The translations under genes and the position numbers were made by a program. A stretch of DNA of 64,000 bases from Escherichia coli (GTDB lineage: Bacteria > Pseudomonadota > Gammaproteobacteria > Enterobacterales > Enterobacteriaceae). Below, piece by piece: positions 63,482-64,000 of the stretch. The notes under the pieces are model-generated. The model saw nothing but the letters and a program-made list of their open reading frames with translations. It was not told the origin of the DNA and searched no databases. The stretch lies in the NCBI RefSeq assembly GCF_003334315.1, contig NZ_QOWR01000009.1, one strand, 5' to 3'. How positions within the stretch are numbered: the stretch's first letter is position 1; the number at the start of each line of letters is the position of its first letter.

Positions 63482-63547
63482 TGTTTATTTCCTCTGTTTC
63501 CAGTTGCGTTATTTTTCTACAGCAAAGAAAATTCGACCGGGCCGATG

Positions 63548-64000
63548 GGTAATGACTCCAACTTATTGATAGTGTTTTATGTTCAGATAATGCCCGATGA
63601 CTTTGTCATGCAGCTCCACCGATTTTGAGAACGACAGCGACTTCCGTCCCAGCCGTGCCAGGTGCTGCCTCAGATTCAGGTTATGCCGCTCAATTCGCTG
63701 CGTATATCGCTTGCTGATTACGTGCAGCTTTCCCTTCAGGCGGGATTCATACAGCGGCCAGCCATCCGTCATCCATATCACCACGTCAAAGGGTGACAGC
63801 AGGCTCATAAGACGCCCCAGCGTCGCCATAGTGCGTTCACCGAATACGTGCGCAACAACCGTCTTCCGGAGCCTGTCATACGCGTAAAACAGCCAGCGCT
63901 GGCGCGATTTAGCCCCGACATAGCCCCACTGTTCGTCCATTTCCGCGCAGACGATGACGTCACTGCCCGGCTGTATGCGCGAGGTTACCGACTGCGGCCT
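63548..64000 (-). mobile_element. IS1 insertion sequence, partial (terminal inverted repeat end plus 3' part of insB; continues beyond window)
   Basis: From 63548 the sequence ggtaatgactccaacttattgatagtgttttatgttcagataatgcccgatgac... matches the IS1 terminus and insB as I remember them. Confidence 0.93.
63563..64000 (-). CDS. insB: IS1 transposase InsB, partial (N-terminus beyond window)
   Basis: ORF 63563..63940 (-) [48 protein letters not shown]...KHYQ; reading frame stays open to the window edge. Confidence 0.9.

Follow-up and report, generated by a model that had tools for sequence, protein, structure and literature searches.

An IS1 insertion upstream of rihB in Escherichia coli and its predicted effect on rihB-nupX regulation

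Does an insertion sequence lying just upstream of a gene, and oriented in the same direction, switch that gene on, or does it cut the gene off from its own control signals? The question is raised by one end of a 64,000-nucleotide stretch of Escherichia coli DNA (hereafter the window), where part of an IS1 element adjoins rihB, the gene for a pyrimidine ribonucleoside hydrolase. In the abstract of a 2001 paper, Petersen and Moller are said to describe rihB as silent unless a mutation activates it. The gene has also been reported to be physiologically silent in K-12 (PMC2898832). In the literature searched there was no mention of rihB together with IS1, nor of yeiK with yeiL.

The IS1 junction and its age

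The features on which the analysis turns are as follows, in window coordinates.

61190-62440, minus strand: nupX, a NupC-family nucleoside transporter gene, 99 bp downstream of rihB
62540-63481, minus strand: rihB, pyrimidine ribonucleoside hydrolase (313 aa), intact, with the rare substitution P237S; ATG at 63481-63479
63482-63547, minus strand: native rihB upstream DNA kept between IS1 and the ATG, 66 bp
63491-63494, minus strand: rihB ribosome-binding site GAGG, 9 nt before the ATG
63512-63516: T5 run, reading A5 on the rihB strand; about 99.9% of E. coli have T6
63533-63545, minus strand: weak terminator-like hairpin TCGGCCCGGTCGA followed by ATTTTCTTTG, directly past the IS1 end toward rihB
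63539-63547: GGGCCGATG, 9 bp, the predicted target-site duplication if the insertion is a simple one, from the 9-bp duplications of simple insertions at this locus
63548-63570: IS1 right terminal inverted repeat (IRR), an exact 23/23 match, with the outward -35-like hexamer TTGGAG
63548-64000, minus strand: IS1 (IS1A type, from its identity to IS1A copies), right-end 453 bp of the 768-bp element
63563-64000, minus strand: insB', the 3' part of the IS1 transposase frame, 145 codons plus TAA, from translation and a profile match

The 23-nt right inverted repeat of IS1, GGTAATGACTCCAACTTATTGAT, has a single, mismatch-free occurrence in the window (63548-63570) and was matched 0 times in 100 shuffles of the sequence. 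From there to position 64000 the 453 bases are identical to IS1A copies of strains 2018-05-5CC and EC261 (loci L004 and L006), with 1 mismatch over 453 bases to the copy in EC23HZZ201. The insB' frame runs from 63566 to 64000 without an internal stop and ends in a TAA at 63563-63565. Its translation matches the NCBIfam profile transpos_IS1 (139.8 bits, cut-off 100), with the C-terminal 145 codons present and intact, and the frame also matches Pfam DDE_Tnp_IS1. The kept 66 bp correspond to K-12 positions -1 to -67, the T-run excepted. A preliminary description of this DNA placed IS1 66 bp from the rihB start codon with its transposase genes pointing toward rihB, and both points are borne out: the repeat starts at 63548, leaving a spacer (63482-63547) of exactly 66 bp, and since insB and rihB share the minus strand, the orientation given there is correct.

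Draft contig QOWR01000009.1 (assembly GCA_003334315.1) physically stops at window position 64000; its terminal sequence and the final 5,461 bases of the window are identical. IS1 is therefore visible over 453 of its 768 bp, the left repeat, insA and the frameshift site lying beyond the contig end. With short-read draft data, a junction this near the end of a contig might reflect IS1 sequence misjoined to the end of the rihB contig. Against this, the same junction, together with the T5 run, recurs in a Logan contig assembled independently from run SRR3824135, and the break coincides exactly with base 1 of the IS1 inverted repeat, as in true transposition. We consider an assembly artefact to be a very unlikely source of the junction, of almost negligible probability. 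The IS1 copy upstream of rihB is real, strain-specific and an ordinary kind of event.

The adjoining gene is well preserved. RihB matches NCBIfam PRK09955 (NF007417) over its full length (724 bits, cut-off 459) and PDB entry 1q8f with E = 3e-213, and it differs from the K-12 protein by one substitution, P237S. NupX, which is presumed to be co-transcribed with rihB, is identical to the K-12 protein. The P237S change (codon 237, window 62771-62773) converts GGPVHD to GGSVHD, two residues before the proton donor His239, at the site of a proline that typifies hydrolases specific for cytidine and uridine (PMC2898832). This rare allele is known from about 10 contigs.

None of the 5,426 complete E. 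coli genomes contains the IS1/rihB junction of the window. The 23.5 kb to the left of the junction are approximately 100% identical to phylogroup A strains I4, E2, BUCT2930 and UMNK88, and in I4 and UMNK88, the two that were fetched, the rihB-yeiL region is uninterrupted, with an empty site. The nearest relative, CP098971.1, shares P237S, is free of mismatches across 5,009 nt and likewise has an empty site lacking IS1; P237S predates IS1, because this empty-site genome also carries it. The absence of the junction from the 5,426 genomes, with empty sites in the nearest of them, indicates that the insertion is recent and private to a small lineage. That the copy might instead sit at a conserved, ancestral position, a possibility raised in the preliminary description, is at odds with the 0 of 5,426 genomes carrying it and with the empty sites of its nearest relatives.

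Apart from IS1, the window is collinear with K-12 over the sampled intervals 1-48795 and 59295-63547. Smaller differences from K-12 are found in yehL (12892-13979), which carries a 1-bp deletion and frameshift, and in yehM, which has a premature stop, Q461* (codon 461, 15370-15372); the yehLMPQ cluster appears to be decaying in the source strain. Between preA and mglC an 80-nt repeat is present twice (44807-44886 and 44923-45002), the copies sharing about 91% identity; they are also found in K-12 and are probably of the REP/BIME type.

Predicted promoters of the interrupted control region

Where the site is empty, rihB and yeiL are transcribed divergently, their starts separated by 168 bp with the K-12 yeiL start or by 129 bp with the PGAP start. 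The PGAP start lies 39 nt upstream of that of K-12, giving a yeiL of 699 rather than 660 nt (2091 in locus L012, 4356 in locus L001). Promoters were scored by a simple sigma-70 position-weight scan over six real or hypothetical alleles. Two rihB-sense candidates were predicted in the empty site: TTTAGC-16-TAAGAT (score 7.11), whose -10 ends 72 nt before the ATG, and TTAAGA-17-TCGAAT (score 4.74), whose -10 ends 50 nt before it. These native promoters are consensus predictions, and scans of this type are weak evidence, a separate one of the empty site giving 2 sites against 1.2 expected.

With IS1 at -66 (-67 in K-12 numbering), the first candidate is pushed at least 768 bp away and the second loses its -35. 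The best rihB-sense score in the IS1 allele is at most 3.3, for a site inside IS1, and a separate promoter scan of 63300-64000, which includes the kept 66 bp, predicted no promoter on the minus strand. Just 1 bp past the insertion point, and so on the far side of IS1, is a CRP/FNR-type palindrome, TTGAATCTTAACAA; it was located in I4 (L012 2030-2043), its equivalent falling just past window position 63547. The phylogroup B1 version of the palindrome is TTGAATCTTACCAA. It could be a YeiL or FNR site, and our literature search found nothing on it. On the rihB side, the terminator-like hairpin TCGGCCCGGTCGA is also present in the empty site and is not significant (1 site against 0.8 expected), and no known RNA element was found in the rihB leader (62400-64000 gave no Rfam hit with E of 1 or below).

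Could IS1 itself supply a promoter? A canonical IS1 hybrid promoter requires a -10 hexamer 16-18 bp past the outward -35, and in an ST131 clone an upstream IS1 raises, lowers or leaves unchanged the neighbouring gene, depending on spacing (PMC8764528). Here the outward -35 is TTGGAG, positioned 8 bp from the end of IS1 and agreeing with TTGACA in three of its six bases. The hexamers found 16, 17 and 18 bp past it are CGGTCG, GGTCGA and GTCGAA, with 0, 1 and 1 of 6 positions in common with TATAAT, while TCGAAT, a 4/6 match, would need a 19-bp spacer. As there is no -10 at 16-18 bp and no candidate in the position-weight scan, we reject a canonical IS1 hybrid promoter for this allele. The arrangement resembles known hybrid promoters (Prentki et al. 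1986; IS1 upstream of afaA in ST131, and of acrEF) in that a terminal repeat with an outward -35-like hexamer lies upstream of a gene. It differs from them in lacking a -10-like hexamer at 16-18 bp (0-1/6), and in that the right end faces rihB (TTGGAG, 3/6) and not the better left end (TTGGCA, 5/6).

These results bear on the view that IS1 turns on a silent rihB-nupX pair, by outward or read-through transcription or by removal of a silencer, with the T5 run as a fine-tuning step. Its appeal is that rihB is silent in K-12 (PMC2898832), that IS1, with its outward -35, is able to activate genes next to it (PMC8764528, PMC9330008), and that the transposase is transcribed in the same direction as rihB. 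However, neither a -10 at the right spacing nor any promoter gain of A5 over A6 was found, and a substitution beside the catalytic His239, P237S, would be unexpected in an enzyme selected for more activity. IS1 is also strongly polar, which counts against activation. The sequence of the allele offers no support for read-through activation of rihB from IS1, and, together with the evidence from other genomes given below, we regard the activation reading as a live rival with roughly one chance in four.

The bgl operon is the paradigm for such activation: there an upstream IS1 or IS5 activates a cryptic operon by disrupting a silencer while the core promoter stays intact. The rihB allele is similar in that a catabolic gene reported as silent in the wild type has an insertion sequence in its upstream region. 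It differs in that the predicted core promoters of rihB would themselves be displaced.

We favor a different account. A recent, lineage-specific transposition put an IS1A-type IS1 into the control region shared by the divergent rihB(-nupX) and yeiL genes. The element would cut rihB-nupX off from everything upstream of -66, including both of the best sigma-70-like candidates and TTGAATCTTAACAA, and any transcription still reaching the two genes would be weak read-out from IS1. That rihB-nupX is uncoupled in this way from its native inputs, with no canonical hybrid promoter supplied and possibly with a deletion on the far side of the element, is a prediction to which we give an even chance. The preliminary description held that rihB expression is probably altered. 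This is plausible insofar as the native promoter candidates are displaced, but no canonical hybrid promoter is formed (0-1/6). Since the best promoter candidates are displaced or destroyed, rihB regulation has probably changed, and on the predictions made here uncoupling is more likely than activation. Comparison with genomes lacking the insertion, as the preliminary description proposed, identified the displaced promoter candidates; the far junction, with any target-site duplication, lies outside the contig.

IS1 events at the rihB-yeiL locus

The rihB-yeiL control region is intact in 5,355 of the 5,426 complete genomes and disrupted or missing in 71. The IS1 events found in and around it are given below in K-12 numbering upstream of rihB, in which the window insertion is at -67.

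-22: LH13-b (L038)
-54: NH-21 (L003)
-93: EC23HZZ201
-113: 74-2
-132: strain 35/CFS3246; in the opposite orientation in ST361
Inside rihB: 2 events (L004, L011)
Inside or just after yeiL: at least 5 events, with L006, L008, L009 and L030 inside yeiL

The position of the window junction is unique among the 5,426 genomes, with other IS1 hits falling within the same 168-bp control region. IS1 within about 1 kb of the rihB start has the orientation of the window in 14 genomes and the opposite orientation in 36, mostly from one ST361 clade. Because the opposite orientation is at least as common, there is no bias pointing to selection for outward transcription. Orientation bias is accordingly rejected as a sign of such selection, and the absence of a bias toward an outward-facing IRR (14 against 36 genomes) also counts against activation of rihB.

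In LH13-b (L038 2601-2640) an oppositely oriented IS1 lies 22 bp from the rihB ATG and yeiL through psuK are deleted; as this allele keeps just the ribosome-binding site, it almost certainly lacks a rihB promoter. Some junction coordinates recur in independent IS1 events (L007 2815, L029 2815, L007 3583, L030 2696-3463). The K-12 -132 site has been hit in both orientations (strain 35/CFS3246 and ST361), and a site inside yeiL (L001 4692/4693) has been hit in both EC06 and strain 35. The repeated coordinates suggest that IS1 has hot spots among its targets here, or that paired copies have recombined.

The other genomes raise the possibility that yeiL, perhaps together with psuT, psuG and psuK, was lost in an IS1-mediated adjacent deletion or rearrangement of which the IS1 end seen here is the remnant, so that the rihB junction is a by-product. 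In all four complete genomes with an IS1 right end in the rihB-yeiL intergenic region (74-2, strain 35/CFS3246, EC23HZZ201 and NH-21), the target duplication is missing and yeiL, or yeiL through psuK, is deleted on the far side. IS1 is known to cause adjacent deletions (Turlan and Chandler 1995, as cited in PMC9330008), and the related genomes at this locus, with yeiL through psuK deleted and no target duplication, are of the same kind. The contig of the window stops inside IS1 and so does not contradict such an origin. On the other hand, simple insertions with 9-bp duplications also occur at the locus (L004, L006, L009, L010 and L030). For a simple insertion the predicted layout would be CATCACC, then GGGCCGATG as the 9-bp duplication, then ATTGAATCTT and intact yeiL. 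An exact-protein look-up with YeiL for the yeiL-side contig of the same assembly gave only common, intact loci. From the related genomes, IS1 may border a deletion of yeiL or psu genes; that the rihB junction is only the by-product of such an event is possible, if doubtful. The pattern at the locus as a whole fits a dispensable region that is repeatedly disrupted by IS1, not one that is repeatedly activated.

The T-run contraction and expression of rihB-nupX

One feature of the kept 66 bp stands as a counterpoint to uncoupling of rihB-nupX: both genomes with IS1 less than 70 bp from rihB independently carry a T5 run. The run lies 30 bp from the IS1 junction in the window, at about -30 from rihB. 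It is T6 in K-12, I4, UMNK88, CP098971.1 and the other loci fetched, the exceptions being NH-21 and five IS-free genomes. A BLAST search with the 66-bp spacer found the exact T5 form in only 5 of 5,399 genomes, with NH-21 as a sixth match. The five belong to two haplotypes, both with intact, IS-free control regions.

NH-21 is the only complete genome with an IS1 right end less than 70 bp from rihB (at -54, with 53 bp of flank kept). Its IS1 differs from that of the window by 30 mismatches in 453 nt and its flanking haplotype is 3.8% divergent. Across the corresponding 2.7 kb ET650, the nearest relative of NH-21, is longer by one base, in keeping with a T6 run. T5 is thus present in 2 of 2 IS1-proximal alleles (-66 and -53) and in 5 of about 5,397 other genomes, for which the hypergeometric P is approximately 1.4e-6. 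IS1 alleles at -93 or farther have T6 and keep the second native promoter candidate. A search of metagenomes for further IS1-proximal alleles, with the IS1 end no more than 30 nt from the T-run, gave 0 matches.

Several explanations for the contraction were considered. A sequencing artefact is unlikely, given two assemblies of the window genotype and 0 pseudogenes in 49 kb of NH-21. A mutator background is unsupported, the net length difference from I4 being one base over 23.5 kb. A structured RNA leader was rejected, as z-scores against shuffled sequences were -0.30 for A5 and -0.07 for A6. The position-weight scan predicted no promoter gain for A5 over A6 in either IS1 allele, and by-eye matches to CRP, CytR and DeoR sites around the T-run were too weak. 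A cdd defect selecting for rihB was likewise rejected, because cdd is identical to that of K-12.

The recurrence of T5 in the two proximal alleles, on distant haplotypes and next to different IS1 variants, while their nearest relatives have T6, counts in favor of activation. It suggests a compensatory or second-step change in cis, and its appearance with a proximal IS1 twice independently suggests selection on rihB expression; the pairing fits compensation or activation better than simple neutrality. One could accordingly envisage a rewiring in two steps, in which an IS1 with its right end facing outward less than about 70 bp from rihB destroys the native promoter and a contraction of the T6 run, before or after, restores or raises expression, independently in two distant lineages. 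We consider this sequence of events distinctly improbable.

Insertion of IS1 ahead of a gene is textbook material, and the window allele, private to a small lineage, changes little by itself. It provides a clean natural case in which the assumption that a same-orientation upstream insertion sequence means activation is unsupported by sequence. At the level of the species, the rihB-yeiL-psu region is a repeated and apparently dispensable target of IS1. If the pairing of T5 with a proximal IS1 is confirmed, it would mean that expression of the silent rihB-nupX genes is under selection in nature.
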